64,000 bases of DNA. It comes from Candidatus Brennerbacteria bacterium (GTDB lineage Bacteria; Patescibacteriota; Minisyncoccia; UBA6257; GWB1-50-10). This document shows, in pieces, positions 4,306 to 61,652 of this stretch; within the stretch, counting starts at the first letter, position 1; each line of letters opens with the position of its first letter. The translations under genes and the position numbers were made by a program. Location: assembly GCA_016183535.1 (NCBI GenBank), contig JACPEK010000002.1, positions 1,382 to 65,381 on the forward strand. The letters are read 5' to 3'. Under the pieces are notes generated by a model. It made no database searches. It was not told where the DNA came from and saw nothing but the letters and a program-made list of their open reading frames with translations.

Positions 4306-4310
4306 CCCAT

Positions 4311-44414: not shown

Positions 44415-44462
44415 AAGTTATACACAAACTCCTGCGGGAGCGGGCGATATAATTAAAGAGAA

Positions 44463-44723
44463 ATGAATCGGTCTACCATCATCGCGATTGTAATAGCCCT
44501 TATTGCCGTTGCGGTAGGCGTCTATTACTTTACGGCCGATCTCGATACGACGCCGGAGGAGCGCGCGCTTACCGAAGCGGCGGATCTCCTCGCGGGAGAC
44601 GAGTCGAGCAACTTGTCGTCCGTGGTGGATACGAGCGTGAATCCGGTGGGGGAAACGCCCGACGTGAATCCGGTGGAGCGCGCGAATCCCTTTAGCGGCG
44701 TGAAGACTAATCCGTTCGAATAA
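44463..44723 (+). CDS. Hypothetical small secreted or membrane-anchored protein
   Basis: 86 aa with an N-terminal TM/signal anchor and an acidic, Pro-rich C-terminus. Confidence 0.4.
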   Translation: MNRSTIIAIVIALIAVAVGVYYFTADLDTTPEERALTEAADLLAGDESSNLSSVVDTSVNPVGETPDVNPVERANPFSGVKTNPFE

Positions 44724-44725
44724 AT

Positions 44726-46582
44726 ATGAAACGAGAACTTATCGCGAGCGCGTTGATACTCTTTGTCGGCATCGTGGTCGCGGGAGCGGTGGCGGTCGTG
44801 CCGGCACTCGCGCAAGAAGGGAATGTGGCGAAGATCGAGTTTCCCGTCGCGGAGCTTGGCAATTGCGGGAGCGAGCAGGCGTGCAAAACCTATTGCGACG
44901 ATCCTGCGCACATCAAAGCGTGTGTGAATTTCGCGGAGCAGAACGGTCTCATGTCGCGCGCGGAAGCCGCGACCGCGCGGAAGTTCGCGGAAGGCGCATT
45001 CAAAGGCCCCGGCGGATGCACGTCGCGAGAATCGTGCGAATCGTACTGCGACGACGTGAGTCGCATTAATGAATGTGTGGCGTTCGCTGAATCGCAGGGG
45101 TTTCTCCCTCCCGAAGAATTAGCGGAGGTAAAACAGGTGCAATCCGCCATTGCGCGGGGCGTGGTGCCGCCCGCGTGCGGGAACAAGCGCGCGTGTGAAA
45201 GTTACTGCCGCGCGCCCGCGCACATGCAGGAATGTATCGCGTTCGGCGAAGCGGCTGGCTTCATCAAGGGGCAGGAATTGGAAGATGCGAAGAAAGTTTT
45301 GGGCGCGATAGAGAAAGGCGTAACCCCGCCCCCGTGCGGCGGGAAAAAAGAGTGCGATACCTACTGCGGAGAGGAAGCGAATTTCCCGCAGTGTATCGCG
45401 TTCGCGGAGGCCGCGGGGTTCATGTCGAAGGAAGAAGTTGCAATAGCAAAGAAGACGGGCGGGAAAGGCCCTGGCGGGTGCCGCGGCGAAGAATGTAAAA
45501 CCTATTGCGACAATCCCGCGAATCAGGGAATATGCTTCGCCTTCGCGAAGGAACATGGCCTCTTGAAACAGGAGGATCTTCAAAGGATGGAGGAGGGGAA
45601 GGCAAAGTTTGCGGAAGGGCTCCGGCAGGCGCCGCCCGAGGTGGCGGAGTGCTTGAAATCAACGGTAGGCGAAGAAGTATTGAACAAGCTTGCCACGGAG
45701 GGCGGTATGCCCCCGCGGGACCTGGGCGAGAAAATGCGCGCGTGTTTCGAGAATTTCAGACCTCGCCCGTCCGAAGAGTTCCGCGAAGGTGGGCCCTCGC
45801 AGGGGAATTTTCAAGGGCCGCCCTCGTTCGGAGAAGGTTTTGGTGAATCGCAGGGCGCATTCAGCGGCCCGGGCGGATGCACGAGTCCGGAAGAGTGCCG
45901 TTCCTACTGCGAATCGAATCCGGAGGCGTGCGCTAACTTTGGCGGCGGGATGATAAGGGAAGGAAGAGAAATTCCGCGTCCCGGCGAAGTTCCTCATTTC
46001 GAAGACGGGTTTCAAAGGGGTCAGTTCCCTGCATGTTCATCGCCCGAAGAGTGCAAACAGCAGTTCGAGGGTCGGGGCGGTTTCCCGGGCGGAACATCGG
46101 AGGGAGCGTTTCCGGTTCCTCCCAACAACATGATGCCGCAGGAGTTTCAAAAACAGTTTGGTGATCAATACCGCGCGGAATTTGAAAAACAATATCAACA
46201 AGGAAATATGCTGCCTGCGGGTCTTTCTCCGCAATATCCGCAAGGAGCGATGCCGTCTGGTGTGATGATGCCGCAGTCGCCGATGCGGGAGTTTCAGGGC
46301 GCGCCGTATCCCGCGCCGGGCGCGTATCCGCAACCGACCGGCGGAACCTATCCCTCACCGAGCGCTTATCCTTCAGGTGCAGAAAGTTTCCAGCAGTATC
46401 AGCAGTATCAAGGAACGACCGGCGGCTATCCGCCTGCCCCGACCGGAGCGTCGGGACCGCCACCTTCTGGTGAATTTAACGCGCCGCCGCCCGAGTTTCA
46501 AAGCGCGCCGCCGCCGCCTCCTTCAAGCTTGGGTCCGCAGACGCTCCTCGGTCTCTTCCTCAACATCTTCCGCGGCGAGTAG
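44726..46582 (+). CDS. Secreted cysteine-rich repeat protein (at least 6 repeats of ~50 aa, C-x4-C-x3-C-x8-9-C) with a C-terminal Q/P/Y/G low-complexity tail
   Basis: Signal peptide ending ALAQEG. Repeat units include GxCxSxExCxxYCDxPxHxxxCxxFAExxGF. The last ~200 aa are proline/glutamine rich. Confidence 0.7.
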   Translation: MKRELIASALILFVGIVVAGAVAVVPALAQEGNVAKIEFPVAELGNCGSEQACKTYCDDPAHIKACVNFAEQNGLMSRAEAATARKFAEGAFKGPGGCTSRESCESYCDDVSRINECVAFAESQGFLPPEELAEVKQVQSAIARGVVPPACGNKRACESYCRAPAHMQECIAFGEAAGFIKGQELEDAKKVLGAIEKGVTPPPCGGKKECDTYCGEEANFPQCIAFAEAAGFMSKEEVAIAKKTGGKGPGGCRGEECKTYCDNPANQGICFAFAKEHGLLKQEDLQRMEEGKAKFAEGLRQAPPEVAECLKSTVGEEVLNKLATEGGMPPRDLGEKMRACFENFRPRPSEEFREGGPSQGNFQGPPSFGEGFGESQGAFSGPGGCTSPEECRSYCESNPEACANFGGGMIREGREIPRPGEVPHFEDGFQRGQFPACSSPEECKQQFEGRGGFPGGTSEGAFPVPPNNMMPQEFQKQFGDQYRAEFEKQYQQGNMLPAGLSPQYPQGAMPSGVMMPQSPMREFQGAPYPAPGAYPQPTGGTYPSPSAYPSGAESFQQYQQYQGTTGGYPPAPTGASGPPPSGEFNAPPPEFQSAPPPPPSSLGPQTLLGLFLNIFRGE

Positions 46583-46675
46583 AAAATTCCCGAAGAATAT
46601 CGTCGGGAATTTTCTATTATCATGATCCCGTCGAGGCTTGTCTCGAGCGAAGCCGAGGGATAGGATGGTTCCGCC

Positions 46676-47170
46676 ATGACAAGGAAAGGGGTAAAACTAT
46701 TGAACGTAAAACCGTTCCGGGAGACCTCGGGGTTCTGCGGACCCGCGTCGCTCAAAATGGTACTCGCGTATTACGGTGTGCGGAAGTCCGAGCGCGCGCT
46801 CGCACGCCTTGCGGGTGCCACGCGAAGTCAGGGCGTGGAAGCGCCGGGTCTCGTGAAAGCGGCGCGACGGCTGGGGTTTATCGCGCGCATCAAGGACCGC
46901 GCGACGCTCGCGGACATCAAAAAGTACATAAGGAAGTGCATCCCCGTTATCGTGGACTGGTTTTCTAATGACGACGGCCATTATTCGGTGGTGGTCGGCA
47001 TCACAAAGAGCACTATCTATCTCCAGGATCCGGAAATCGGGCGGGTGCGGGCAATGGACACGAAGACATTCAAGCGGGTGTGGTTTGATTTTCCCGGCGA
47101 CATCCTCCGCTCCAAAAACGCGGTGGTTCTTCAGCGTATGCTCGTGGTCCGCCGTTCGGGCAAAAATTAA
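46676..47170 (+). CDS. Standalone peptidase C39-like (papain-fold) domain protein
   Basis: Catalytic Cys context SGFCGPASLKMVLAYYG and His context DGHYSVVVG. 164 aa with no ABC-transporter domain. Confidence 0.65.
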   Translation: MTRKGVKLLNVKPFRETSGFCGPASLKMVLAYYGVRKSERALARLAGATRSQGVEAPGLVKAARRLGFIARIKDRATLADIKKYIRKCIPVIVDWFSNDDGHYSVVVGITKSTIYLQDPEIGRVRAMDTKTFKRVWFDFPGDILRSKNAVVLQRMLVVRRSGKN

Positions 47171-47195
47171 AATGATCCCGCCAAGGGGAAGATTT

Positions 47196-47909
47196 TTAAT
47201 GAAGCGCTTCCTTGATTTGTTCGCGGACTTCTTTGCTGGCACGCAGGACGGGATTTTTCGAGGCGACCGCTATGACTCTTCCTTTTGCGTCGAAAACGTA
47301 ATCGTCCAGATACACGCCATTGCACACCTGACATTGCGGTATCGTGTTCGAGAGGGCGAGAGGTTTATGCGGATCCATATGCCCCTGTTGGAGCGCTGTT
47401 GTTTTGCCGGGCTCAAGAAAATTTGGCTTGTGTTCTTGTGAGCCGCACGTGGCGCAACGGAACCCGTACACTACTTTAAGTTGTGCAAAATCTTTTGCGG
47501 CAATACGCCCCGCGCGTTTCAGCGATTTGAAGAGAAACGTAGGCTTCGGACTTTCGGTAGTGATGAGAATATGGTAGCCGCTCGGCACCACTTCTTTTTT
47601 GTTCTGATATTTGTCGCCTTTATTAAGCACATACCATCCGTCGCTCGCCAGATGACGAACTTGCTGGTCTTTGCCCGCTTTCGGATTTACGCTCGCTACA
47701 AATGACGAAATGGTGTCTTTGTGGACGAGCGCGCCCTTGTTCTTCCGCAGGAAAATGAGCCACAAGGCTTTTATACTGTTCCTCGCCGGGAACTTCACGC
47801 TGTACGGCGAGAGGTGGGTTTTGTGTTCTGCTTCGAGTTTTCGGTACCAACTTTCTATTTCATCGGGGGACATATACACATGCCCTCCTTGCTTATCCAG
47901 TTTTTTCAT
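47196..47909 (-). CDS. HNH (His-Me finger) endonuclease, putative Type II restriction enzyme
   Basis: CATCGS...QQGHMDPHKP...NTIPQCQVCN (CxxC - H-x-DPH - N - CxxC). It overlaps the upstream methyltransferase gene by 17 nt in an AT-rich island. Confidence 0.6.
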   Translation of the reverse strand: MKKLDKQGGHVYMSPDEIESWYRKLEAEHKTHLSPYSVKFPARNSIKALWLIFLRKNKGALVHKDTISSFVASVNPKAGKDQQVRHLASDGWYVLNKGDKYQNKKEVVPSGYHILITTESPKPTFLFKSLKRAGRIAAKDFAQLKVVYGFRCATCGSQEHKPNFLEPGKTTALQQGHMDPHKPLALSNTIPQCQVCNGVYLDDYVFDAKGRVIAVASKNPVLRASKEVREQIKEALH

Positions 47910-49431
47910 AGTTTTTTAAACGCTTCTCCGCAATGGCGAAGTATTTTTTCTCTATTTCAAAACCGATGAATTTCCTATTTTTTCTCAAGGCGGCGACTCC
48001 TGTAGTGCCGCTTCCCATGAAGGGGTCGAAAACCGTTTGTTTCGGGGAGGTGAATATCTCAATCAGCCGCTCCATAAGGTCTATCGGTTTTATAGTCATG
48101 TGGTCAATGAGTTTTCTTGAGTTCGGTTTTTTATAGTTCAGCACGGTCGTTTGTTGCGATTCGGGAAAATCCGTTTGGATAAGTCCCGTGCGCCATGTGA
48201 GCCAGTTTTCGACGAATGTCCCTTCTTTCGGCTTGTGCGCGAGCAGAATCGCCTCGAATTTCGGTCGTAGTTGAGGGGTTTTTCTGTTTTCAAGGCTCTT
48301 GATAATCTGCTCTTTTTCGTGCGCGGGGATCTTCATCTTTTTCACGAAGTGGTTTTGAGTGAACGCTTTTCCTTGCCCGCCGTTATGCTCCCATATCAGC
48401 ATATCCCGTATTTCAAAACCGGCGTTTTCGGCCGCGAGCGCGAGACGGTGGAAGAGTCTTCCCTGCGAAAATGAGATCATAAATCCTCCGGGCTTGAGCA
48501 CTCGTAACGCTTCGTGGAAAACTTTGGTGAAAAATTTTTCGAGCTTTTTTCCTTGTTCAGGATCGAATTTCATGCCTACCGGGAGGCCTTGTATCGCTCC
48601 GGCCCTTGCCGATTTTTGTTTCAGTTTGGCATCCGACCACTCGTTGTCCATCCCATCAAGAAAATAAGGGGGATCGGTGGCGATAAAATCTACGCTGTTC
48701 GTGTCAATACTTTTGAATGCGTCCAAGCAGTCAGCGAGATAAATTGAGACGTTACGCCAAGTTTTTTTATCAACGATCTTTTTCCCGCTCGTTTTCTCGG
48801 CGACGCGTTCCGGTGTTATTGCGGGCGCGGATTTTTTGTTTCGGATAACGTCGACAAAAACACCTTGGATTGCAAAGTCCTTTTTTCCCCACTTGACGAT
48901 GATCGGCTCGAAGTTTTTGTTCGCGGGCTGAAGGCGAATTTGGTTCCTCTCCTTGTAGTAAGTTTTCAAAGTAGTGTCATAGTTATCGATGAGCGCGACC
49001 ACCTTCTGCCCGTTCTCCGCGACCGATTGATGGCGAACCAATATGATGTCGCTGTCATTGATATTTTCTTCGACCATACTCTCGCCTTGCACGCGCAACG
49101 CGTACACGTTGCCCGCATTCGGAATCCGGTTCGCGGGGACGGCGATCGTTTCGGTGGGTGTATCGAAGAGCGTGAGCGGTTGTCCGGCAACGATGGTGCC
49201 GAGTAGGGGAATTTGAACCATGGAGGTTGCTTCAAATATCTGCACCCCTCTTCGTTGGTTTTTGTTCAGCTGAAGGTATCCCGCGTCCTCCAAATTTTGG
49301 AGATGTTCATGCACAGTGCCGACCGCTCGCTTGAGGCCGGCGGCTATCTCGGGGATGGAAGGGGAGTATCCGCGCCTCCGCGCGTATTTAGTAACAAAGT
49401 CGAGCACCTCTTTTTTCTTATCGGTGAGCAT
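47893..49431 (-). CDS. Fusion protein: full-length LexA-like repressor (wHTH plus S24 autopeptidase) joined to a beta-class N6A/N4C DNA methyltransferase
   Basis: aa 1-205 form a LexA domain (MLTDKKKEVLDFV...PSIPEIAAGL; IPLLGTIVAGQP; GESM Ser and KTYY Lys). From aa ~225 onward it is an MTase (SVDFIATDPPYF motif IV, FDPFMGSGTT motif I). It is a single 512-codon ORF with no internal stop. Confidence 0.65.
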   Translation of the reverse strand: MLTDKKKEVLDFVTKYARRRGYSPSIPEIAAGLKRAVGTVHEHLQNLEDAGYLQLNKNQRRGVQIFEATSMVQIPLLGTIVAGQPLTLFDTPTETIAVPANRIPNAGNVYALRVQGESMVEENINDSDIILVRHQSVAENGQKVVALIDNYDTTLKTYYKERNQIRLQPANKNFEPIIVKWGKKDFAIQGVFVDVIRNKKSAPAITPERVAEKTSGKKIVDKKTWRNVSIYLADCLDAFKSIDTNSVDFIATDPPYFLDGMDNEWSDAKLKQKSARAGAIQGLPVGMKFDPEQGKKLEKFFTKVFHEALRVLKPGGFMISFSQGRLFHRLALAAENAGFEIRDMLIWEHNGGQGKAFTQNHFVKKMKIPAHEKEQIIKSLENRKTPQLRPKFEAILLAHKPKEGTFVENWLTWRTGLIQTDFPESQQTTVLNYKKPNSRKLIDHMTIKPIDLMERLIEIFTSPKQTVFDPFMGSGTTGVAALRKNRKFIGFEIEKKYFAIAEKRLKNYEKTG

Positions 49432-49537
49432 AACTTTCGTCTTCTTTCAGTATGTTATAATTCTACTAAACCGACCCGAAAGAAAACCGAAAGTCTGTGG
49501 ATAACTAAAAGGTCGTTTAGATTAAAGCATTATTAAC

Positions 49538-49660
49538 ATGGTTGAAGAAAATGATACCATTGGTGAACTTCGTCAGCAGTTCAATGAACTCGAAAAGCGA
49601 GTAGTAACTATTGAGGAAAAGTTGGCTGAATTAGAGAAGGAGGGACAATCTCAAAACTGA
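49538..49660 (+). CDS. Hypothetical 40-aa coiled-coil peptide (not in the ORF track, below 60 aa)
   Basis: MVEENDTIGELRQQFNELEKRVVTIEEKLAELEKEGQSQN. AT-rich, just beyond the R-M operon on the opposite strand. Confidence 0.25.
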   Translation: MVEENDTIGELRQQFNELEKRVVTIEEKLAELEKEGQSQN

Positions 49661-49769
49661 TCACCTACGTTAAAACCTCGCCCCACGGCGAGGTTTCGGT
49701 TGAAATTTTTCCGAAAACGAGGTATAATCAGAAAAAAGTAGGGGATTCGCGTCCCAACCTGAAAGCCGT

Positions 49770-50078
49770 TTGACTTCCAAGCCGGGGCAGCCCGGAATTT
49801 GTTCTATGTCACAAGGAATCGACCTGAAAACAGCTGCATATAGATACGCTAAGAATTCTATAAGAACGTTTGTGGAGGGAGGGAAATACGCCCGTGACAA
49901 AAAACCAAGGAGTATAGCTTGGTTGTTAGGAGTTGTTGGAGAATCTGGAGTCAGTAGGGATGATTTGGTGAGAATTTTTTCGGAGTTAAGCACTTACCCT
50001 ATGGACGCAGAAGGGAGAATTAGGTTTGAAGAGGGCAAACGAAAGATCGAAGAAATGATCGAAAGGCGAACTCGATGA
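49770..50078 (+). CDS. Hypothetical protein
   Basis: 102 aa ORF (alternative start 49806, MSQGIDLKT) with no recognisable domain, inside the AT-rich island. Confidence 0.35.
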   Translation: MTSKPGQPGICSMSQGIDLKTAAYRYAKNSIRTFVEGGKYARDKKPRSIAWLLGVVGESGVSRDDLVRIFSELSTYPMDAEGRIRFEEGKRKIEEMIERRTR

Positions 50079-50398
50079 ATTCGACAATCACAGTTTGTGA
50101 GAATTGCAAAAAGGAAACCGACCAGGTTATCCTCACCGCTTTTGTGGGTGACAAGAAGTTAATCGAACCTCTTGAAAGTGCGCCGTTTAGGTGTGGTCGT
50201 TGCAAGCGGTCTCTGGCACCGAATGAGAAGTTCTTTAGAGTTACTGCGACTATTTTATATGTTTGCAAAAATGGCCACACCGGTGATCATCCAGACGTTG
50301 AGGCTAAAATGGATGAGGATTCAAGAGAGTGGGAAGGGCATTTTGTGTGTGAAGAATGTGGAGAGGAAATGAAAATCGATGGAGAAAGAGTAGGGTAA
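50075..50398 (+). CDS. Zinc-ribbon protein with four CxxC pairs
   Basis: CENC...CGRC...C-x8-H...CEEC; 107 aa. Its start overlaps the previous stop (ATGA). Confidence 0.45.
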   Translation: MNSTITVCENCKKETDQVILTAFVGDKKLIEPLESAPFRCGRCKRSLAPNEKFFRVTATILYVCKNGHTGDHPDVEAKMDEDSREWEGHFVCEECGEEMKIDGERVG

Positions 50399-50515
50399 GA
50401 AAAATTCATGCCCTCCCACGGCGCGATCATCGAAGAAAGCCCGTAGCCCTCATTCGCCAATTCGCGCGAATAAGCGAATAGTTCCCGCCGTCCAGTTTTG
50501 AGGTAGAATGTGGTC

Positions 50516-51100
50516 ATGCTGAAAGCCGTCATCTTTGATCTTAATGGAGTTTTCGTAAAAAGCCGTAAGTTGAGCGAACGCTTTCATGAGCGATTCGGCG
50601 TTGCACCCGAAGAATTCTTTTCCGCACTGAACGTCATTATGGCAAAAGTGCGCATGCCGAATGCCGGCGACTCCTTTGCATACTGGGAGCCGTATTTTGA
50701 GAAGTGGGGCGTGGGACTCACGAAGGAGGCATTCCTCGATTTTTGGTTTTCGGGCGAGGAGGAAGTGCCCGAGATGGTATCGCTCGCCCGCGAGCTAAAA
50801 GCAAAAGGAGTAAAGCTATTCATTCTTTCCAACAATTTTTCCGAGCGCACCGTGTTTTATCAGGAGCATTTTCCGTTCCTTCGGGAACTTTTTGATAAGG
50901 TGTATTACTCTTGGCAAACGGGCTTTCGGAAGGATAGCGAGAAGGCGTATCAGAATCTTCTCACGGAGAACAGCCTCGCGCCGGGGGACTGCGCGTTTTT
51001 TGATGATTCACCGGAGAATATTGAAATAGCCCGCCGCCTCGGCATCCAGGCGTACCCATTTGAAAACCCCGAGCGCACCCGCAGTATTTTAGTGAAATAA
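50516..51100 (+). CDS. HAD-superfamily hydrolase
   Basis: Motif I FDLNGV(F), motif II SNN, motif IV FFDDS. Start set at the ATG 7 nt after a TAGAAT box; the ORF track's GTG at 50510 overlaps the -10 box. Confidence 0.75.
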   Translation: MLKAVIFDLNGVFVKSRKLSERFHERFGVAPEEFFSALNVIMAKVRMPNAGDSFAYWEPYFEKWGVGLTKEAFLDFWFSGEEEVPEMVSLARELKAKGVKLFILSNNFSERTVFYQEHFPFLRELFDKVYYSWQTGFRKDSEKAYQNLLTENSLAPGDCAFFDDSPENIEIARRLGIQAYPFENPERTRSILVK

Positions 51101-51221
51101 CCCATGTTCCACGGCGCCATCATTGAAGAAAGCTTGTGATTGGGATTGACAAATAGCACGGAAACGTGCTACTTTGTTTTCAGTTCTAATTCACTGTTTT
51201 CTCACTTCAACGGAGGTTGTG

Positions 51222-51557
51222 ATGACAACCAAAATAGTGACGGCATTAACACTTGGGTTCGTGGTCGGTGTCCTGGTCGGTGTTTTTCTCATCCAGAAAG
51301 ATCCGTCCGCTCAGGTGGGCACTCAAGAGGACGTGGCGATGCTCCGCTTCCTCGTGAACATGGAGAAGGGACAGGCAAAACCGTTCGATGATCTTGAACT
51401 GGGGACATACCGAATCGGTGCCCTCGTCGACGACTACACAATGGTGCTAATCCAGCCGGTCCCGAAAGGACACATCCCGATTCTGGTCCGGAACGTTCCT
51501 TTGCATGCCATTCGGAACGGTTTCGTTTACAAATATTATCCTTTTGAGCCCTCTTGA
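51222..51557 (+). CDS. Hypothetical small membrane protein
   Basis: GGAGG RBS; a single N-terminal TM helix; 111 aa. Confidence 0.5.
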   Translation: MTTKIVTALTLGFVVGVLVGVFLIQKDPSAQVGTQEDVAMLRFLVNMEKGQAKPFDDLELGTYRIGALVDDYTMVLIQPVPKGHIPILVRNVPLHAIRNGFVYKYYPFEPS

Positions 51558-51570
51558 ATGGTTTATCGCG

Positions 51571-51606
51571 CGGGTGCTTCGATTAATCGAAGCACCCGTT
51601 TTTTGT
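51571..51606 (+). terminator. Rho-independent terminator (duplicated element, copy 1)
   Basis: CGGGTGCTTCGA-TTAA-TCGAAGCACCCG perfect hairpin followed by TTTTTTGTTG. A near-identical copy lies at 52945-52977. Confidence 0.75.
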
Positions 51607-51627
51607 TGTCCGGAGTATAATAGGTGT

Positions 51628-51819
51628 ATGTCACACCGAAGCTTTGCGCGCGCGGCGGGAGTGGTGTTTGCGTTCGTGTTCATCGTCCACCTTCTGCGGC
51701 TCGTGCTCGGTTGGGAGGCGGTGATCGGGGGGGTCGTGATACCCATGTGGGTGAGCGGGCTCGGGCTTATCATCGCCGGCATCCTTGGCTACTACGGTTT
51801 CCGTCATCAGCGGCAATAG
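51628..51819 (+). CDS. Hypothetical small membrane protein (63 aa, two TM helices)
   Basis: TATAAT at 51616-51621 sits 6 nt upstream of the ATG, so the mRNA is probably leaderless. Confidence 0.45.
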   Translation: MSHRSFARAAGVVFAFVFIVHLLRLVLGWEAVIGGVVIPMWVSGLGLIIAGILGYYGFRHQRQ

Positions 51820-51821
51820 GC

Positions 51822-52937
51822 ATGAACTATCAATTGACGGTGGAACGGCTCCTCGCGCGTGCGGGGATAACGATAAACGGCGATGAGCCATGGGACATTC
51901 GGGTTGCGAACGAAGGTTTCTACCGGCGGGTAATCCGTAAAGGATCGCTTGGTCTTGGCGAATCGTACATGGACGGTTGGTGGGATGCGCCGAAGCTCGA
52001 CGAATTTTTCTTTCGGGCGCTCCGCACAAATCTTAGGAAAGAAGTCGGTATTTCTTTCGCGCAATTCGTGCTGTTCCTGCGGAGCGTTATCCTGAACCCC
52101 CAGCGTCATTCGCGGGCGTTCATCATCGGCAAACGGCACTATGACCTCGGGAACGATTTCTATACCGCGATGCTTGACCAACGTATGGCATACAGCTGTG
52201 GATACTGGAACGGCGCGAAAAACTTAGACGAGGCACAGGAGGCGAAGTTGGACCTCATCTGTAGAAAGCTTGGGCTTCAGCCGGGGATGAACGTGTTAGA
52301 TATCGGATGCGGATGGGGAAGTTTCGTGAAATATGCGGCGGAGCATTATAACGTGAAAGTTCTCGGCATTACGGTTTCCAAGGAGCAAGCGGTGTACGGC
52401 GCGAATCTTTGCGAGGGACTTGCGGGTTCTACTGTCCGTTATGCAGACTACCGCACATTAAACCGCCAATTCGACCGCATTGTGTCGGTCGGGATGTTCG
52501 AGCATGTGGGGCGCAAGAACTACCACACCTTTATGGAAGTGGTGCACCGAAATCTTGCACCGGACGGGCTTGCACTTCTCCACACGATTGGCGGGAACGC
52601 CTCGGTCTGGTGCAACGATATATGGATCGACAGATATATTTTCCCGAACTCCATGCTACCATCAGTCGCACAGATCAGTCGCGCCATCGAGGGGCTCTTC
52701 GTGATGGAGGACTGGCATAGCTTCGGCGCCGATTACGACCGAACACTCATGGCGTGGTTTCAAAACTTCGACGCGCACTGGGGCCGACTCCAAACGAAAT
52801 ACGGCGATCGCTTCTACCGCATGTGGAAATACTACTTGCTTTCATGCGCCGGCTCGTTTCGGGCGCGGCGCAACCAGCTCTGGCAGGTGGTGCTTTCAAA
52901 GAAGGGCGTGCCGGGCGGATATCGCTCGGTACGATGA
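51822..52937 (+). CDS. cfa: Cyclopropane-fatty-acyl-phospholipid synthase family SAM-dependent methyltransferase
   Basis: VLDIGCGWGSF SAM motif; LHTIG, YRMWKYYL C-terminal motifs. Start at MNYQLTV directly after the previous stop. Confidence 0.8.
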   Translation: MNYQLTVERLLARAGITINGDEPWDIRVANEGFYRRVIRKGSLGLGESYMDGWWDAPKLDEFFFRALRTNLRKEVGISFAQFVLFLRSVILNPQRHSRAFIIGKRHYDLGNDFYTAMLDQRMAYSCGYWNGAKNLDEAQEAKLDLICRKLGLQPGMNVLDIGCGWGSFVKYAAEHYNVKVLGITVSKEQAVYGANLCEGLAGSTVRYADYRTLNRQFDRIVSVGMFEHVGRKNYHTFMEVVHRNLAPDGLALLHTIGGNASVWCNDIWIDRYIFPNSMLPSVAQISRAIEGLFVMEDWHSFGADYDRTLMAWFQNFDAHWGRLQTKYGDRFYRMWKYYLLSCAGSFRARRNQLWQVVLSKKGVPGGYRSVR

Positions 52938-52944
52938 TATGAAC

Positions 52945-52977
52945 GGGCGCTTTGATTCATCGAAGCACCCGTTTTTT
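52945..52977 (+). terminator. Rho-independent terminator (duplicated element, copy 2)
   Basis: CGGGCGCTTTGATTCATCGAAGCACCCG imperfect hairpin followed by TTTTTTGTTG. Confidence 0.6.
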
Positions 52978-53001
52978 GTTGGGTTAGGGTAGAATGAAAG
53001 T

Positions 53002-53478
53002 ATGAATATTCGAAAGGGGATTGCGCTTGTGGTGGCGGTGGGGGCGTCGCTTCTCGCGGGCGCTATCGGTTCCATATTCACCGCATCCTCAGTCTCCTTG
53101 TGGTACCCGACACTCATGAAACCGGCGCTCAACCCTCCCTCGTGGGTTTTTGGCCCCGTGTGGACCGTGCTCTACGTGCTTATGGGTATTGCGGCGTTCC
53201 TCGTGTGGAGGCAAGGGTGGGAGCGGCGCGACGTAAAAGACGCGCTCAAGATATTTGCGCTCCAGCTCGTGCTGAATGCGCTTTGGTCCGTACTCTTCTT
53301 CGGGCTCCAAAGCCCGCTTCTCGCGCTCGTGGGCATCGTGCTCTTGTGGGGCGCAATACTCTGGGTTATATCTGCGTTCGCACGCATTTCACGCCCTGCG
53401 GCGTGGCTTTTGGTGCTCTACCTCGCGTGGGTTACCTTCGCGACATATCTCAATGCCGCCATCTGGCTCTTGAACTAG
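53002..53478 (+). CDS. tspO: TspO/MBR family tryptophan-rich sensory protein
   Basis: 158 aa, 5 TM helices, W-rich (PSWVFGPVWTVLY, LNALWSVLFF). GGGTAGAAT box 8 nt upstream of the ATG. Confidence 0.85.
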   Translation: MNIRKGIALVVAVGASLLAGAIGSIFTASSVSLWYPTLMKPALNPPSWVFGPVWTVLYVLMGIAAFLVWRQGWERRDVKDALKIFALQLVLNALWSVLFFGLQSPLLALVGIVLLWGAILWVISAFARISRPAAWLLVLYLAWVTFATYLNAAIWLLN

Positions 53479-53559
53479 GTGCTCGGAGTTTTTGCCGGTT
53501 AATTGACGATGTCTTGCGTTCGGGCGTAGGGTTTCGTTGTGTTGGGGTAGAATGAAGAT

Positions 53560-53652
53560 ATGAACACGAGCCTCGCAACGACAAAGGCTTATGACAAGAT
53601 CGCGCCGCGCTACAATCCGGCCGGTCGCCGGAAAAGCGCGGCAACGGTCTGA
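53560..53652 (+). pseudogene. Truncated N-terminal fragment of a UbiE/MenG-like class I methyltransferase (copy 1)
   Basis: MNTSLATTKAYDKIAPRYN then an early stop. It is preceded by the GGGTAGAATGaAGAT promoter cassette and is ~85% identical to copy 2. Confidence 0.5.
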
Positions 53653-53814
53653 AATTGGTTCGGGAAGTGGTACTTGCTAATCCGATAGATTTATTTTTCG
53701 AGAGCGGTGACGCGGAAGTGCACCTCAAAGGCGACGATAAATATTTTCGGGTTACGCGCGGTCCCAATGTAGTTCGGGGTTGTATGGCAAAAATTAATTT
53801 TTAGCTAATACAAT

Positions 53815-54108
53815 ATGAAAATACCATTAGAAAAATTCGGCACCACTCTTATCTCACGCGAACTGGGTAGCGAGGCGTTCAAGGCGTTTCAGCCCACCTT
53901 GTTGGAACTGCCGCCCCATGAAGAGTTGGAAATCGATTTTTCCGGAATATTAACGTTGTCACCTTCGTGGGCGGATGAATTTTTAAGCCCTCTCCTTGAG
54001 CGATTCGGTGAACGGCTGGTGTTGTTGCCTTCCGACAATCTCTCGGTGCACGCAACTTTGAAAATTCTGCAAGAGGCGAATAAACGCCCGTTCAAATTTA
54101 GGCAGTGA
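53815..54108 (+). CDS. DUF4325-like (STAS-like) small protein
   Basis: 97 aa; the ELEIDFSGILTLSPSWADEFLSPL pattern matches STAS-like DUF4325. An AT-rich promoter lies upstream. Confidence 0.5.
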   Translation: MKIPLEKFGTTLISRELGSEAFKAFQPTLLELPPHEELEIDFSGILTLSPSWADEFLSPLLERFGERLVLLPSDNLSVHATLKILQEANKRPFKFRQ

Positions 54109-54244
54109 GCCTCTCGGTCACTTCGCACCCTCGCCTTGCTTGCTTCGGAGCAACGGGGGAGTGTAGCACCGTTAATCCCTCATTCGCCAATTCGCGCGAA
54201 TTGGTGAATGATTCCCGCTGTGCGTTTTAGGGTAGAATGGAGAT

Positions 54245-54316
54245 ATGAACACGAACCTTGCGACGACAAAGGCGTACGATAAGATGGCACCGCACTACAG
54301 TAAGATTCATTTTGAT
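54245..54316 (+). pseudogene. Truncated N-terminal fragment of a UbiE/MenG-like methyltransferase (copy 2)
   Basis: MNTNLATTKAYDKMAPHYSKIHF then a stop. The upstream 70 nt duplicate the cassette found before the HAD gene (ATTCGCGCGAAT palindrome plus GGGTAGAATG). Confidence 0.5.
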
Positions 54317-54478
54317 CCGAATGAGCAGAGGATGATTCGCCGATCAGTTGAAGCATCGGGCGTTCTATAAGGCGTCTTACCGAGCTTTTTGTGAGACAAA
54401 TTGCGGCCTTTTGTGGTTGTCCACAGGCAGAGACGACAGTGGGGAGTAAGATAAAAGAGAAGTAATAAAGAACAGCTC

Positions 54479-54546
54479 GGCGTTTCGAGAGTACACATAG
54501 TGTGAGACCACGCGGTCTTGTGTGTTCTCGAAACGCCGTTTTTGTT
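54479..54546 (+). terminator. Long compound hairpin terminator
   Basis: GGCGTTTCGAGAGTACACA...TGTGTTCTCGAAACGCC with an inner AGACC/GGTCT stem, followed by TTTTTGTTTG. Confidence 0.6.
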
Positions 54547-54586
54547 TGCGCGCGAAGCGCAAAAAGGTCAGTTAATCTCAAAAATT

Positions 54587-55180
54587 ATGGATGAACAAAA
54601 TCAAAATCAATTTGGCGCAGGTCCGGCGAATGTTCCGCCTGTGGTGAGCCAGCCCGCAGTGAACCGATCGAATCTGCCGAACCCACCCGTGACAGAACCC
54701 TCAAATCCACGGAAATCGAAGTTCTGGAAATTCGTGGCGTGGTTTGTTGCGATTGTGATCGTGGCGGCTGCAGGACTGTGGGCGATTGGGGATTATCAGT
54801 ATTCGGAGGGTATTAAAGCTTTTGAGAAATGGGCGGAGGATACAAAGCGCGCGACGGAAGAGTTTGAGGCGAGAAAGGCGGCGGACACCTTCGGCGGCGC
54901 GACGCCGCAGGAAACGCTCCGTGTGTACATTGAAGCGGTTGAGAAAGGTGATTACGAATTGGCGAGTAAGTATTTTGTATTTGATCGCCAGGAGAAGGAA
55001 TTAAGAAGTCTCACTAATTCGCCACCAGATAATGTCGTAAACGTAACGCGACTTCTAAGGGAGGCACTGAATAATGAGGGAAGTTATTCGGCTGACAGAA
55101 AAGAATTCGCAATTAGAAGACCAATCCTCGTGGACTTTATTCTCTATCCTAGCGGCCTTTGGAAAATTGTAGAGATCTAA
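54587..55180 (+). CDS. Hypothetical membrane-anchored protein (Q/N/P-rich N-terminus, one TM helix, alpha/beta periplasmic domain)
   Basis: 197 aa; TM WKFVAWFVAIVIVAAAGLWAI. It lies immediately upstream of the giant surface protein. Confidence 0.5.
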   Translation: MDEQNQNQFGAGPANVPPVVSQPAVNRSNLPNPPVTEPSNPRKSKFWKFVAWFVAIVIVAAAGLWAIGDYQYSEGIKAFEKWAEDTKRATEEFEARKAADTFGGATPQETLRVYIEAVEKGDYELASKYFVFDRQEKELRSLTNSPPDNVVNVTRLLREALNNEGSYSADRKEFAIRRPILVDFILYPSGLWKIVEI

Positions 55181-55190
55181 AAAATTCGCG

Positions 55191-58100
55191 ATGCGTAGGG
55201 CCACCGTATCACTCATTGTACTTGCGGTTACGATAGGAATTGTTTTTCCTGCTCGGGCACTCGCGTACGATCAAGAAACTACTCACGCCGCACTCACGGA
55301 TGAGGCGGTGGATTTCTACAACCTTCTCTATCCGGACGAACCACTCACCGCCGAGCAAAAAGAATGGATTGTAGAGGGAAGCATCAACGAGGATGAATTT
55401 CCGCGGTGGCTGAACCACTTCTATGACCCGATAAGGAAAATTGGATGGAATGGTGAACATCAAGGGATCGCGAGCGCCGGGGCAACGCGCGCGGTAGCGT
55501 ATGCAACATTAGTGCCGATCGGCGGCGCAGTTCTCCCCACGACAGCGTGGGTGCACGATCACGCCATGCAAGCCGGCCCCTACGCGAATATGGGAGGCGA
55601 CCGCACGTGGGAGCAGGCGCTTAAATACTACGTGGATGGAAACAAGGAAGAAGCATACCGGACGCTCGGCCACGCCCTCCATCTTCTTCAAGACATGACG
55701 GTACCCGACCACAGCCGGAATGATTCGCATGCGCCGCTTGCCGGTGACGACGGATCGCCTCTTGAGGATTATCTGGAAAAATGGAATCGCGGGAATATCG
55801 GGGAGTTGGATTTGGTCGGTAATCTTACTGCACAAAATACGCGGCCGCCCTCGTTCAATAAAATCGAGGACTATTTTACAAACACGGCAGAGTACAGCAA
55901 TAAACATTTCTTCTCAAAGGACACTATAATTAGTGATGTATACACTTTTCCAGAAATAGTCAAGGATAATGGAAATTTTGGATATGGAATTGATGAGAAC
56001 GGAAATGAATTTCCACTTGCGGGTGTTGATTTTATAACCGATGAAAGTAAAAAAGTTTCGAAAATATTTTTAATTGGGAACAAAAAAGAGTACTACCCCA
56101 TCCTCAACGCATATTTCTCCCGCCTCGCGCCAAAAGCAGTGCTTTATGGCGCAGGTGTCATCGAACTGTTTGAAAAGCAGGCGCGCGACGCGCTTGAGTT
56201 CAAGGATATCGCTCCCCATGCTACGCGTTTGGATTTATCGCGCGTAACTTCACTCTTCTCATTTTCGCTTGGCGCATTGGGAAAAAATATTGTAACCGGT
56301 GTTGCTTCTTTACCCTCTTTGATTGGTCGAGTATTTTCTACCGCGGTGGGTGGCGTAAAAAACGCCGCGAGCGATGTGGCGGCGTTCACGCAGAATATTA
56401 TCTCGAAGATTCAGAATAATCCTAAGCGTGCCGCGGAGATCGCGACGGAAAGCGCGGAGCAAATAGAAAATCTCCTCGCGGGGGATCCGACGGACGGCGT
56501 CGTGATCGACACCGAGGAAGAACGGGCACAACTCAAGGAGCTCCAGAATCAACTCGACGATATCGCGGATCAAGTAGACGACTTCACGTATCAAGTGGAT
56601 AAGGCGGCGGGGAACGAGGGAAGGGGAGGAGCGCAGGAAACCGCTGGTGGCGCTGACGAAACGGAGGACGCGCAGAAGAAGACTGGTAGTGTGGACAAAA
56701 GCGTTGATACGAAAGAGAAAACGAATAACACGGGAAGTAAGAAAAATATTTCAAGTGGGGGAGGCGGTGGTGTGGCGGCGAGTGCACCGAATCTCGCGAT
56801 TACCGAGATTATGTATAACGCGTCCGGCACCGACGACGGGCGCGAATGGATTGAAGTGAGGAATGATGGGGCCTCCTCCGCAAGTTTTGATGACGTGCGG
56901 TTTCTTGAGGGTGGCACAAATCATCGGCTCGTGTTTGCGCGTGGCGCCGCGGCGCTCGCGGCGGGCGCCTATGCGATTATCACCGATGATGCTGATCGGT
57001 TTATCATTGATTATCCATCATTCGCGGGGAGTCTCTTCGATAGTTCGTTCTCCCTCTCGAACGACGGCGAGACGCTCGCGCTCACGTTCAATGGCAGTAC
57101 CTTTCATTCGGTTTCATACAGCTCGAGCACGGGCGCGCATGGCGACGGGAACTCTCTCCAATTGATCGGGGCGGCATGGCAAGCGGCGACACCGACGCCG
57201 GGTGTGGTGAATGTCGCGGGGTCATCCGGCGGCGGATCTTCAGGTGAGGGTTCTTTAAGCGCCACTTCGACCGCAACCTCCTCGCCGCCCACGTCAGGGT
57301 TCGGCGCCTCCCACGTGGTGATAAGTGAGGTACAGGTGGCGGGCGCGGATGCGGGCGACGAGTTTATCGAACTTTACAATCCGACGGATCAGGCGGTGGA
57401 TATGTCAGGCTGGTCGCTCCAGTACGCGGGCGGCAACACCGTCGTTACGTCTTCCACAGTAAGCAAGAAGAATTTTCTCGCGACGAGTTCCATTGTGGCG
57501 AAAAGCTTTTACCTTGTGGGGCGCGGACTCGACGAAGCAGGCGGAGACGGCTATCGCGGGAGCGTCGTATCTGATATGGCCCACCGCACGTTTTCGCTTT
57601 CGGGCGCCTCGGCGGGTGCCAAGCTTTTCCTTGTGCCAAGCTCTACATTAATAGAAAGCGAAACCGATCCGATTATTCTCGACACGCTCGATTACACCTC
57701 GACCACCGTGGTGGACGCGGGTCAAAGTTTCGAGCGGCGCGCGTGGAGCAATAATCTTTGCCACTCGGCGATCGCGGGCGGCACGGGAGAATTTCTAGGG
57801 AACGGGTGCGATACTGGTACCTTTGCGGAAGACTTTGAGATACGGGCGGCGGCGAATCCACAAAACAGCGGGAGCTTCAAAGAACCACGCACGGCGCCCT
57901 CGGTGCTCCAGGCCCCGACGGGGACTACGGCACTCGCCGTCTATAACCGCAATGCGATCGCCATCAACTTTGCATGGCAAGCCTCAAGTGATTTCGAGGG
58001 TGCAACCTCCACCGTTACCTACCGCGTTACGAATGCGTCAACCTCCGCGATTATTTTCAATACGACCTCAACATCGTTTTCGAAACAAATAACCGAGGTG

Positions 58101-59615
58101 GGACGCTCATATTCATATATCTTCCAAGCATTTGATCGCGACGGCATGGGATCCGCGACAAGCTCCGTTACGGTGGAAGCGCCGAGTTTTTTGAGCGCGC
58201 TCTATCTCTATCCCGATCCGTTTGCTACGAGCAGTCGTTATGTGATTGACCTCTACTATGATTCATATCCATTCATCCCGCATCGCTGGAGTTCGGGCGG
58301 CGCGTGGCGCCTGCCGCTGTTCTACTTGAACCGCGTTGCGCCGGGGAGTACGAGCACACACGTCTATGATCCTGAACCGATTTCCGCGGCGCTTGCCAAC
58401 GGCATCGTCGCGATGAAATTTCGCGACTGCGGTGGTCAACCGGACGAGGTGAATGTACGGGTGCGCCTGCCCGACACCGCCGCGCAGTGTGTATCCTCCG
58501 GCGCGGGCGTGGACGACATAGCCTTCTCACTATTGGAGGATCCCCACCTGCGGCTCACGCTCGCCTCGTCAAGCGACGCGCTTCCGCTTTCAACATCTGA
58601 TTATCTCACCGTCGCCTTCTATGATTATTCGACGCCCACCTTGGTATACGGTGGCGGCCGCGCGTTCTCGCTCGTCGCGACCGACACGAATCAATACCAT
58701 TTCAGTGTTTCCGCCCCCGCCTTCATCGCTCCGCACATTCCCGATTCGTTCACCGTAGAATTTGACGCCACAAGCTCGCGCCTCATCGCGCGATGGGCGA
58801 CCTCGACCGACGTAGACACTTTGGATAACCTTCTCACCTACGAAGTTGCATTTTCGACGAGTACCTCTCCCGCGGAGTCTGACTGGCAGTCTGCAGGGTC
58901 CCAGCCGCACGCGGATGTGGATGACCAGACGTTTATCTCCCATCGCTACCTGCGGCACGTGGCGCCGGGCGACGCATTCACCATAGGCGTGCGCGCGAAG
59001 GACGAATTTGGCGTAACCTCGACGCCGCGCACCGCGGCGTGGCAATATCAGGCCGCCACGGAGGTGTTTTTACAGGCAACGAGCACCGGGTGGAGTAACG
59101 TGTGGGGTCAAAAGGATTCGGGGCACCCGCAATATCCTGCTCGGGCATCCCTCCAAAGCATTGTTCCTGCGAGCGCGCTTATATTCGATGTTGCGACGAT
59201 ACGGGCGTGGGAAGAGGTAATAGGAAGAAGCGTGCTGACCACGCTCCGGCTCGGTGTGTTCGTGGATGACGGCGCGAACCGACCGCTCCTCACAAACAAA
59301 CTTGGCGAGGCCACGGTCGATCAACTTGGAAATTTCGCAACCTCCACCGATCTCGCGTTTGTGTTTACCTCTCCTATAACGCTTGCCACAAGTACAAAAT
59401 ATTGGTTTGCACTCGACGTGGGGAGCGTGAGCGACAACGCGGCATATTTTGAAAATCAGTGGCGGAACGCGATCGCGACCGGCGACCCCTATTCCGCGGG
59501 GCAGGCAGGGAGAGGCGCGGTGGAGGAATGCGCCAACAACGACTATTGCGGCACGAGTATTCCCTCGCCCTCGGCCGACGCGGATTGGTATCTGAAACTG
59601 TATTTGCGGCAGTAG
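55191..59615 (+). CDS. Giant secreted surface protein: zinc-dependent phospholipase C / P1-nuclease-like N-domain, two lamin-tail domains (LTD), and a ~900-aa beta-rich C-terminal region
   Basis: Signal peptide ARALA|YDQ. PLC/S1-P1 fold motifs NHFYDP and GHALHLLQDMTVPDH. LTD1 LAITEIMYNASGTDDGREWIEVRN, LTD2 VVISEVQVAGADAGDEFIELYNPTDQAVDMSGWSL. 1474 aa. Confidence 0.7.
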   Translation: MRRATVSLIVLAVTIGIVFPARALAYDQETTHAALTDEAVDFYNLLYPDEPLTAEQKEWIVEGSINEDEFPRWLNHFYDPIRKIGWNGEHQGIASAGATRAVAYATLVPIGGAVLPTTAWVHDHAMQAGPYANMGGDRTWEQALKYYVDGNKEEAYRTLGHALHLLQDMTVPDHSRNDSHAPLAGDDGSPLEDYLEKWNRGNIGELDLVGNLTAQNTRPPSFNKIEDYFTNTAEYSNKHFFSKDTIISDVYTFPEIVKDNGNFGYGIDENGNEFPLAGVDFITDESKKVSKIFLIGNKKEYYPILNAYFSRLAPKAVLYGAGVIELFEKQARDALEFKDIAPHATRLDLSRVTSLFSFSLGALGKNIVTGVASLPSLIGRVFSTAVGGVKNAASDVAAFTQNIISKIQNNPKRAAEIATESAEQIENLLAGDPTDGVVIDTEEERAQLKELQNQLDDIADQVDDFTYQVDKAAGNEGRGGAQETAGGADETEDAQKKTGSVDKSVDTKEKTNNTGSKKNISSGGGGGVAASAPNLAITEIMYNASGTDDGREWIEVRNDGASSASFDDVRFLEGGTNHRLVFARGAAALAAGAYAIITDDADRFIIDYPSFAGSLFDSSFSLSNDGETLALTFNGSTFHSVSYSSSTGAHGDGNSLQLIGAAWQAATPTPGVVNVAGSSGGGSSGEGSLSATSTATSSPPTSGFGASHVVISEVQVAGADAGDEFIELYNPTDQAVDMSGWSLQYAGGNTVVTSSTVSKKNFLATSSIVAKSFYLVGRGLDEAGGDGYRGSVVSDMAHRTFSLSGASAGAKLFLVPSSTLIESETDPIILDTLDYTSTTVVDAGQSFERRAWSNNLCHSAIAGGTGEFLGNGCDTGTFAEDFEIRAAANPQNSGSFKEPRTAPSVLQAPTGTTALAVYNRNAIAINFAWQASSDFEGATSTVTYRVTNASTSAIIFNTTSTSFSKQITEVGRSYSYIFQAFDRDGMGSATSSVTVEAPSFLSALYLYPDPFATSSRYVIDLYYDSYPFIPHRWSSGGAWRLPLFYLNRVAPGSTSTHVYDPEPISAALANGIVAMKFRDCGGQPDEVNVRVRLPDTAAQCVSSGAGVDDIAFSLLEDPHLRLTLASSSDALPLSTSDYLTVAFYDYSTPTLVYGGGRAFSLVATDTNQYHFSVSAPAFIAPHIPDSFTVEFDATSSRLIARWATSTDVDTLDNLLTYEVAFSTSTSPAESDWQSAGSQPHADVDDQTFISHRYLRHVAPGDAFTIGVRAKDEFGVTSTPRTAAWQYQAATEVFLQATSTGWSNVWGQKDSGHPQYPARASLQSIVPASALIFDVATIRAWEEVIGRSVLTTLRLGVFVDDGANRPLLTNKLGEATVDQLGNFATSTDLAFVFTSPITLATSTKYWFALDVGSVSDNAAYFENQWRNAIATGDPYSAGQAGRGAVEECANNDYCGTSIPSPSADADWYLKLYLRQ

Positions 59616-59616
59616 A

Positions 59617-61020: not shown

Positions 61021-61053
61021 TCCCTACCTACGGCAAGGCACGTTTTTGTTTTT

Positions 61054-61625: not shown

Positions 61626-61652
61626 TATTCTGCAGAATGTTAGAATGTTGTA
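61617..61652. repeat. Palindrome family copy D (ACATTCTAATATTCTG|CAGAATGTTAGAATGT, one mismatch)
   Basis: It overlaps the ArsR-like stop codon. Confidence 0.85.

Follow-up and report, generated by a model that had tools for sequence, protein, structure and literature searches.

A recurrent 32-bp palindrome, predicted to be an ArsR-type operator, in a probable patchwork of accessory-gene modules of a Candidatus Brennerbacteria genome

Repressors of the ArsR/SmtB family act on inverted-repeat operators, among them the 12-2-12 sites of SmtB and CzrA; HlyU and NolR are further members. Other repressors use auxiliary operators inside genes for looping, such as lac O2 inside lacZ and gal OI inside galE. 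Palindromes inside reading frames also occur as Rickettsia palindromic elements (RPEs), which are roughly 100-150 bp long, and families of repetitive extragenic palindromic (REP) sequences or miniature inverted-repeat transposable elements (MITEs) turn over quickly. To our knowledge, almost nothing is known about gene regulation in bacteria of the candidate phyla radiation (CPR), which are mostly uncultured; a LexA regulon of Patescibacteria was reportedly published by Sanchez-Osuna and colleagues in 2017. We analysed 64 kb of CPR/Patescibacteria DNA (the window) from a Candidatus Brennerbacteria metagenome-assembled genome (MAG), in which a 32-bp palindromic element and several other repeats lie at 50.4-54.6 kb. 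We consider it probable (roughly 65%) that this region is a patch of accessory-gene modules carrying a CPR-wide ArsR-type operator, and that its other repeats are scars of shuffling.

The element is present twice in the window, the two copies lying 3.7 kb apart.
50450-50481, no strand assigned: element copy 1 (TC ATTCGC CA ATTCGCGCGAAT AA GCGAAT AG), ending 34 nt before the start codon of a gene for a HAD-family phosphatase
54180-54211, no strand assigned: element copy 2 (TC ATTCGC CA ATTCGCGCGAAT TG GTGAAT GA), ending 33 nt before ATG 54245
Its pattern, YY-ATTCGC-NN-ATTCGCGCGAAT-NN-GCGAAT-RR, is a dyad-symmetric site of 32 bp, within the ~26-32 bp of ArsR/SmtB operators. It is made of four 8-bp units and can equivalently be written as ATTC-N4-ATTC-N4-GAAT-N4-GAAT; both window copies belong to the CA/TG spacer subtype. 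Within the window, ATTCGCGCGAAT was found only at 50460 and 54190. The bare 12-mer is not significant, at least two matches being obtained in 31 of 100 shuffles with one mismatch allowed. Its significance derives from the 25-nt run CCCTCATTCGCCAATTCGCGCGAAT shared by both copies and from recurrence outside the source genome.

Scanning one genome per species with the pattern ATTCGC-NN-ATTCGCGCGAAT-NN-GNGAAT (23 fixed bases), we found at least 119 loci in 93 genomes, almost all of them labelled CPR/Patescibacteria and a few labelled outside the CPR. The labels among the matches listed include many Parcubacteria, Saccharibacteria, Gracilibacteria, Peribacteria, Berkelbacteria, Doudnabacteria, Uhrbacteria and Veblenbacteria, and the GC content of the loci ranges from 0.31 to 0.58. 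The element is scarce in unselected CPR DNA: 80 metagenome loci of PIF1 relatives (856 kb), which served as the control set for element density, yielded two copies with up to four mismatches. The maximum was seven exact copies per genome among the matches listed, and no match was obtained in IMG/VR viral contigs. At locus L087 (handles of this form denote individual loci), at least 10 copies lie within 4 kb (1121-4946), several of them ~26-70 nt upstream of a small gene; this cluster adjoins a 911-aa open reading frame (ORF) that is a type III restriction subunit by reading only, not by a Pfam scan.

Conservation between genomes is limited to ~34 bp, and at more than 17 nt from the centre palindromy is no higher than background. 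In the window, the similarity of the two copies is longer: the cassettes at 50447-50498 and 54177-54228 share 83% identity over 52 nt, and the match runs on into the -10 box (50495-50510 versus 54224-54239, 88%). Since the flanks are not conserved between genomes, the similarity of the 52-nt cassettes is a local duplication atop the CPR-wide 32-bp element. It might be argued that the whole region is only a decaying local segmental duplication, in which the palindrome, the boxes and the gene stubs described below are functionless copies. Each repeat class in the window has two to four copies, all inside 4 kb, in keeping with such an origin, but the palindrome core is exact in at least 93 other genomes, which contradicts this explanation for the palindrome. 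The earlier note had recommended a motif search with the palindrome module, stating that modules without recurrence elsewhere would reduce the region to a local duplication; with recurrence across the CPR, this objection fails for the palindrome core. Two further observations, differences between stub copies that fall mainly at synonymous sites, which point to divergence under coding constraint, and a promoter layout that extends across the window, also speak against mere duplication and decay, which we regard as very improbable.

The element exists in two forms. Form A is a perfect palindrome with complementary NN spacers, whereas form B, the commonest variant, is asymmetric (CTATTCGC[CT]TATTCGCGCGAATTAGAGAATAG) and has three fixed mismatches. 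Form B accounts for most of the 63 asymmetric copies, and its two commonest sequences make up 45 of the 129 copies analysed. The spacers are almost uniform between copies of one genome. These forms bear on the possibility that the palindrome acts as a nucleic-acid hairpin, be it an RNA stem-loop (terminator, attenuator, RNase III site or start-codon occluder) or a DNA cruciform. The perfect form folds with -22 kcal/mol and window copy 2 with -19.7 kcal/mol, 92-94% of the perfect copies have complementary NN spacers, and many copies immediately follow a stop codon or precede a start codon by 0-19 nt. Form B, however, reaches only -7 to -8 kcal/mol (z-score -1.5 to -2.3), which is no better than many shuffles, and window copy 1 only -9.2 kcal/mol. 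Moreover, neither window copy is followed by a T-run, no Rfam family matched, the complementarity of the spacers follows from their genome-specific identity, and a stem does not need a sequence so exactly conserved. Because form B folds poorly, the conserved property would be the sequence and not a stem, and we consider a hairpin function quite unlikely.

When the ORFs neighbouring the element were clustered, an ArsR-type protein ranked first (25 of the at least 119 loci). This regulator is an 86-99-aa winged-helix protein (Pfam HTH_5/HTH_20) whose nearest solved relatives are HlyU, CzrA, NolR and SmtB. At most of the 25 loci, the element is located 8-43 nt upstream of the regulator start codon, or at or just past its stop codon. 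If degenerate copies are included, most regulator genes lie between two equally oriented copies of the element, ~330 bp apart. The spacing between element and start codon at autoregulated ArsR genes is mostly 23-33 nt, and the 33-34 nt of the window copies is close to this range.

In 23 regulator-element pairs, variants of the recognition helix sort by element subtype. The helix LSFKATSKHL pairs with ATTCTC-TA-...-AG-GCGAAT elements (13 genomes), LSFKSTSKHL with TT/AA spacers, LSLKSTSKHL with AC/GT spacers, and IS[LP]K..SKHL and IAQKSVSKHL with CA/TG spacers. The earlier suggestion that the palindrome may be an operator, made for a regulator that was left unnamed, is thus well supported by the 25 loci and the co-variation, and the regulator family can be named as small ArsR-type. 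We conclude that this regulator family most probably uses the 32-bp element as its operator, as predicted from the sequences. In the literature searched, nothing was found on ATTCGCGCGAAT, on the element or on an ArsR regulon of the CPR, and the regulator-operator pair appears to be undescribed there.

A second palindrome with its own ArsR-like gene is found elsewhere in the window.
61359-61625, + strand: ArsR-like paralogue, 88 aa, helix NFKTVSQHT (Pfam HTH_20)
This gene is bracketed by the second palindrome (61291-61330 and 61616-61649), of which further copies occur at 12625-12664 and about 16797-16833. Its sequence, CAACATTC-CAACATTC-TGCA-GAATGTTG-GAATGTTG (ATTC-CAAC-ATTC-TGCA-GAAT-GTTG-GAAT), follows the ATTC-N4 architecture of the main element, and the palindrome also precedes an MTES_1575/DUF559 gene (61693-62439). 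The second palindrome is probably the operator of the paralogue at 61359-61625. Further ArsR-like paralogues are likewise flanked by palindromes of their own.

The genes accompanying the element recur as well. In locus L085, a row is formed by TspO, a full-length gene of the GVIIEESL family (see below), the element, the regulator, a second element and an MTES_1575/DUF559 gene. The window likewise contains TspO, GVIIEESL stubs, elements and an MTES_1575/DUF559 gene. That both carry the same accessory genes suggests that these genes tend to travel with the regulatory system. Locus L023 (1078-3056) shows the element, TspO, the element and a PIF1 helicase in that order, and at L183:4658 an element variant precedes PIF1 by 39 nt; in the window, too, TspO and PIF1 are near elements.

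Both window copies stand in front of predicted promoters, of which the region has five.
50504-50509, + strand: -10 hexamer TAGAAT of the HAD promoter, 6 nt before ATG 50516
51616-51621, + strand: -10 hexamer TATAAT of a gene for a 63-aa protein, 6 nt before ATG 51628 (by sequence and promoter alignment)
52990-52995, + strand: -10 hexamer TAGAAT of TspO (by promoter alignment)
53548-53553, + strand: -10 hexamer of MNT[SN]LATTKAYDK stub 1 (by promoter alignment)
54233-54238, + strand: -10 hexamer TAGAAT of MNT[SN]LATTKAYDK stub 2 (by promoter alignment)
The five align as TA(G/T)AAT-N6-ATG and have the predicted features of leaderless sigma-70-type promoters, namely TANNNT ~6-7 nt before the start codon and no Shine-Dalgarno sequence. 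Boxes of the type GGGTAGAATG before tspO and before both methyltransferase-like fragments had been taken for related regulatory boxes. They do recur, but they are not a separate regulatory box: they are the -10 elements of these predicted leaderless-type promoters. The string GGTAGAATG is present in four copies in the 64 kb, all in the region (50502, 52988, 53546 and 54231; expected 0.21). The exact string is confined to the region, although the -10-N6-ATG layout is general in the window, where, according to a crude survey, a -10-like hexamer precedes the start codon by 4-9 nt in ~18 of 67 genes. TAGAAT-N6-ATG may be used in annotation as a marker of leaderless promoters in this lineage.

The window copies of the element end 21-22 nt before the predicted -10 hexamer and occupy positions ~-65 to -34 with respect to the predicted transcription start. 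In the promoters of HAD and MNT[SN]LATTKAYDK stub 2, the element would abut or overlap the -35 region, and repression by occlusion would be its most likely action. In other genomes, where copies are a few hundred bp apart, looping between them may be possible.

Several observations weigh against the preferred reading of the region. About 20 copies are in frame inside housekeeping genes, all of them outside the window. The hosts are MnmA (four copies), Dus (three), MiaA (two), TGT, QueA, UvrC, SecA, MurC/D, DinB, an HhH-GPD enzyme and HsdS; tRNA-modification enzymes account for 11 of the 20 intragenic hosts examined.
L015:3646, L021:7011, L079:6679 and L068:2668: in-frame copies in MnmA
L042:772, L127:833 and L081:7017: in-frame copies in Dus
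L109:474 and L122:1286: in-frame copies in MiaA
L052:2161 and L062:618: in-frame copies in QueA and TGT, respectively
Three of the MnmA copies are found at one protein position and the fourth elsewhere, and all three Dus copies occupy one site in different lineages. Element-free relatives are ~7 residues shorter at the same spot; this length difference makes the element look like an insertion, which is unusual for a binding site. The genes directly downstream of the element are heterogeneous and have no common function, and 22 copies were placed between convergent genes by a crude ORF classification. The right half of each window copy departs from the perfect palindrome (AA for TG; GTGAAT for GCGAAT), so that these copies could be decaying sites. 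The 64-kb window contains no family-1 ArsR gene, the regulator type that pairs with the main element, and the cognate regulator may be absent from the source genome. Finally, no close syntenic relative of the region was found in the 80 PIF1-relative loci or by way of HAD orthologues, so that the order of the rearrangements cannot be reconstructed.

Part of this evidence would suit a small mobile or self-propagating repeat (of the mini-MITE, REP or RPE type) that seeds rearrangements and with which the ArsR-like gene travels along or was recruited. Like RPEs, the element has in-frame copies inside many protein-coding genes outside the window; the sites differ in MnmA, the fractional positions differ in MiaA, and presence or absence changes the protein length by ~7 residues. 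Copies in one genome are almost identical, same-orientation copies flank the regulator gene in a cassette-like manner, and window copy 1 begins 4 nt past a rearrangement junction. However, REP, RAYT (REP-associated tyrosine transposase) and MITE systems have tens to hundreds of copies per genome, whereas the copy number of the element is low, as given above for the 856 kb of unselected DNA and for single genomes. No transposase, RAYT or recombinase family was found among the recurrent neighbours, and viral contigs gave no match. The element is near-invariant across very distant lineages, which is not expected of repeats with rapid turnover, and its co-variation with a DNA-binding helix is a prediction of the regulator-operator relationship. 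We therefore regard a mobile repeat as unlikely and retain the ArsR-type operator as the preferred reading. Three other candidates were dropped: a protelomerase telO site (suggested by the resemblance of the central CGCGCG to telO), as there are several copies per genome; a DNA-uptake sequence, owing to the low copy number; and an integron attC/cassette array with single genes between repeats, which in an informal comparison did not fit the attC core and had no recurrent recombinase nearby.

The genes of the region, among which the remaining repeats lie, are as follows.
50075-50398: zinc-ribbon protein (Pfam)
50516-51100, + strand: HAD-family phosphatase, 194 aa (Pfam Hydrolase and HAD_2); the protein is the same, residue for residue, as an NCBI entry from a Candidatus Brennerbacteria MAG, which places the window in the CPR/Patescibacteria
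51222-51557, + strand: predicted membrane protein, 111 aa (no Pfam or NCBIfam match)
51628-51819 and 51822-52937, + strand: two-gene module of a 63-aa membrane protein and a cyclopropane-fatty-acyl-phospholipid (CFA) synthase (Pfam CMAS, E = 7e-89)
53002-53478, + strand: TspO/MBR gene (Pfam TspO_MBR, E = 1e-50)
53815-54108, + strand: DUF4325 (STAS-like) gene, 97 aa (Pfam DUF4325; orthologous pair in L135)
All four repeat classes described in the earlier note were present where it had placed them, and also in independent Logan assemblies. Logan contigs from two sequencing runs, SRR12113420 and SRR12113422, match the window at 100% identity over 44386-53898 and 53872-61319, which shows that the repeats are genuine sequence and no artefact of MAG assembly. 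The Logan contigs of the two runs both stop at 53898, and a contig of one run begins at 53872, within the DUF4325 gene; these breaks might be due to a strain variant or to reduced coverage.

Direct-repeat pairs each flank one module: the GVIIEESL stubs flank HAD, the terminators the CFA synthase, and the gene starts a fragment of a MerR-type helix-turn-helix (MerR-HTH) gene together with DUF4325. The terminators are the simplest case.
51570-51608, + strand: intrinsic terminator copy 1, 13-bp stem, -24.0 kcal/mol, T6 tail
52944-52981, + strand: intrinsic terminator copy 2, -19.8 kcal/mol, followed by a T-run
54478-54545, + strand: long terminator hairpin closing the region, 20-bp arms, -41.5 kcal/mol, T-run
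All three have a GC-rich stem-loop and a T-run 3' of a gene, as is characteristic of intrinsic (Rho-independent) terminators. The first two are 92% identical over 38 nt (51571-51608 versus 52944-52981) and flank the CFA-synthase module; their folding was matched by no shuffle. Outside the window, the terminator repeat was encountered only in the identical Logan contigs, public collections having not been scanned for terminator or stub repeats.

The second pair consists of two micro-ORFs on either side of the operator-promoter-HAD module.
50408-50446, + strand: GVIIEESL 5' stub 1 (MPSHGAIIEESP*), matching the family N-terminus
51104-51139, + strand: GVIIEESL 5' stub 2 (MFHGAIIEESL*), identified by repeat and motif
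51148-51180, + strand: terminator-like hairpin directly 3' of stub 2, -14.7 kcal/mol, z-score -6.8, followed by CTTTGTTTT
As noted before, the micro-ORFs differ by synonymous changes in their core: the 25-nt cores at 50416-50440 and 51109-51133 are 92% identical, and both differences are synonymous. The accompanying proposal, conserved peptides or duplicated gene 3' ends, did not hold. A six-frame search for HGAIIEES-like peptides led to the start of a 129-aa gene in Jorgensenbacteria, 1.3 kb upstream of a HAD orthologue (70% identity). The corresponding family, which we call GVIIEESL, gave 2558 matches at E up to 1e-3 (the best 120 of these are 70-100% identical to the query); its members have ~129 aa, N-termini of the form M-x-Y-x-GVIIEESLENKDVL and no Pfam domain. 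One family record carries the label Woesearchaeota archaeon. Full-length genes were located at L005:4339-4728 and L085:5507-5902. Only four instances of the motif G[AVTIS]IIEES are present in 1.76 Mb of CPR DNA, namely at these two gene starts and in the two window stubs, where it follows the ATG by three or four codons. Both micro-ORFs carry M-x-Y-x-G-[VAT]-I-I-E-E-S-L right at the start and comprise 11-12 codons only, not the full length, and a tblastn search with the GVIIEESL gene found no remnant in the window beyond the two stubs. The micro-ORFs are, by their sequence, 5' stubs of this ~129-aa CPR family. Tiny 'conserved' ORFs in such regions can accordingly be gene-start stubs, which should be considered in annotation.

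The third pair comprises two further gene starts, the methyltransferase fragments of the earlier note.
53539-53614, + strand: promoter and first 18 codons of MNT[SN]LATTKAYDK stub 1 (MNTSLATTKAYDKIAPRY), a repeat of 54224-54299
54233-54370, + strand: MNT[SN]LATTKAYDK stub 2 with its -10 hexamer; ORF 54245-54370, 41 codons
53616-53804, + strand: MerR-HTH 3' remnant, the last 62 codons and stop codon of a ~244-aa gene that normally precedes DUF4325
Over 76 nt, the two gene starts with their promoters (53539-53614 and 54224-54299) share 84% identity. By reading both sequences, we found nine differences in the shared 54 coding nt, of which six are synonymous. Copies that differ mostly at synonymous sites would have diverged as working genes before truncation, and this history is suggested here. 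No homologue of the stub was obtained with Pfam or NCBIfam, and a word-indexed search of 5.8 billion proteins returned no word-sharing protein. When 1.84 billion representatives were scanned in full with HMMER, the single match (P0241) was to a repetitive protein, and we regard it as spurious. The UbiE/MenG methyltransferase label thus found no homologue in the Pfam, word-indexed and HMMER searches; it goes back to resemblance only and is unsupported. A class I S-adenosylmethionine (SAM)-dependent methyltransferase is likewise not supported by any family homology in these searches; the fragments stop ahead of where a SAM-binding motif would occur.

Stub 1 ends in an abrupt junction. In a tblastn search with L135:2454-3188, where a 244-aa protein assigned to MerR-HTH by Pfam precedes DUF4325, similarity to the window started at 53616 (34% identity over 62 aa, E = 3e-8) in a frame different from that of stub 1. 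The similarity between the stubs stops at 53614 and the MerR-HTH remnant starts at 53616. This break and the frame change indicate that stub 1 was joined abruptly to a truncated two-gene module. An exact protein look-up with the DUF4325 protein of the window gave no record.

Taken together, the results suggest that the region was assembled from one- or two-gene modules, each with a leaderless-type promoter and several with a terminator. Its promoters form a chain of partial similarities. The mosaic may have arisen through successive recombination events for which shared promoter or gene-start sequences served as anchors, and donor DNA might have been taken up from relatives. The view of the region as a mosaic of recombined regulatory modules was borne out for the promoter, terminator and gene-start modules by the repeat pairs and by the junction at 53614/53616. 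DNA binding, repression, looping and the recombination route are inferred by us from these arrangements. Comparison by way of HAD orthologues showed differing neighbourhoods, except for the full-length GVIIEESL gene upstream in Jorgensenbacteria.

An Rfam scan of 49400-55300 (E up to 1) gave no match, and the stretch of ~100 nt at 54371-54477, which separates stub 2 of the MNT[SN]LATTKAYDK gene from the long terminator hairpin, contains no ORF and no Rfam match. On the 3' side, the region is followed by a 197-aa protein, a 1474-aa LTD-domain protein (Pfam) and the PIF1 helicase. The GC content is 0.47-0.49 over 47-51 kb, compared with 0.53-0.59 in most of the remaining window. In this GC-poor part, a single 512-aa ORF (47893-49431, - strand) fuses LexA DNA-binding, Peptidase_S24 and N6_N4 DNA methylase domains. 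It adjoins a 237-aa ORF without family (47196-47909, - strand), which is possibly a restriction enzyme.

More tentatively, we propose a wider scheme, which we hold to be possible but not the likelier outcome. The element and the minimal ArsR-type regulator would constitute an ancient, CPR-wide system whose targets include genes for tRNA modification (MnmA, QueA, TGT, MiaA and Dus) and DNA repair (DinB, UvrC, Fpg and PIF1). In-frame copies would serve as auxiliary operators, and the cassettes as anchors for the swapping of accessory genes between strains. The near-invariant 32-bp site and the 86-99-aa regulator, which should express easily, offer a cheap and concrete experiment. The element also gives a handle on reconstructing a first CPR regulon by comparative genomics.

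The ArsR/SmtB repressors are among the closest described systems. The regulator shares with them the small winged-helix fold of HTH_5/HTH_20 proteins, and the element shares with their operators the dyad symmetry, the length of ~30 bp and the position in the regulator's own promoter region, suggesting autoregulation. The CPR proteins differ in being minimal (86-99 aa) and in having no obvious metal-ligand motif as judged by eye only. Unlike the ArsR/SmtB sites, the element consists of four 8-bp units that are near-invariant across the superphylum. It is found on either side of the regulator gene, and some of its copies are in frame within housekeeping genes. The latter recalls lac O2 and gal OI: QueA in L052 (3080 and 2161) and DinB in L086 (2258 and 1755) have an upstream and an intragenic copy a few hundred bp apart, and the regulator lies between two copies, which is an analogy only. 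In the window, by contrast, the two copies are 3.7 kb apart.

RPEs and the REP and enterobacterial repetitive intergenic consensus (ERIC) sequences are likewise palindromic, occur between genes and in frame inside them, and keep host frames open. The CPR element differs from these in its length of 32 bp, its low copy number, the lack of an associated transposase and its conservation across distant lineages. With respect to conservation, it is comparable to the controlling inverted repeat of chaperone expression (CIRCE) bound by HrcA and to LexA boxes. The regulator family and the sequence are different, and the neighbouring genes follow no single theme, several of them belonging to DNA repair and tRNA modification. 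As in CIRCE/HrcA and LexA boxes, however, a dyad operator would keep both its sequence and its regulator over a very large phylogenetic distance.

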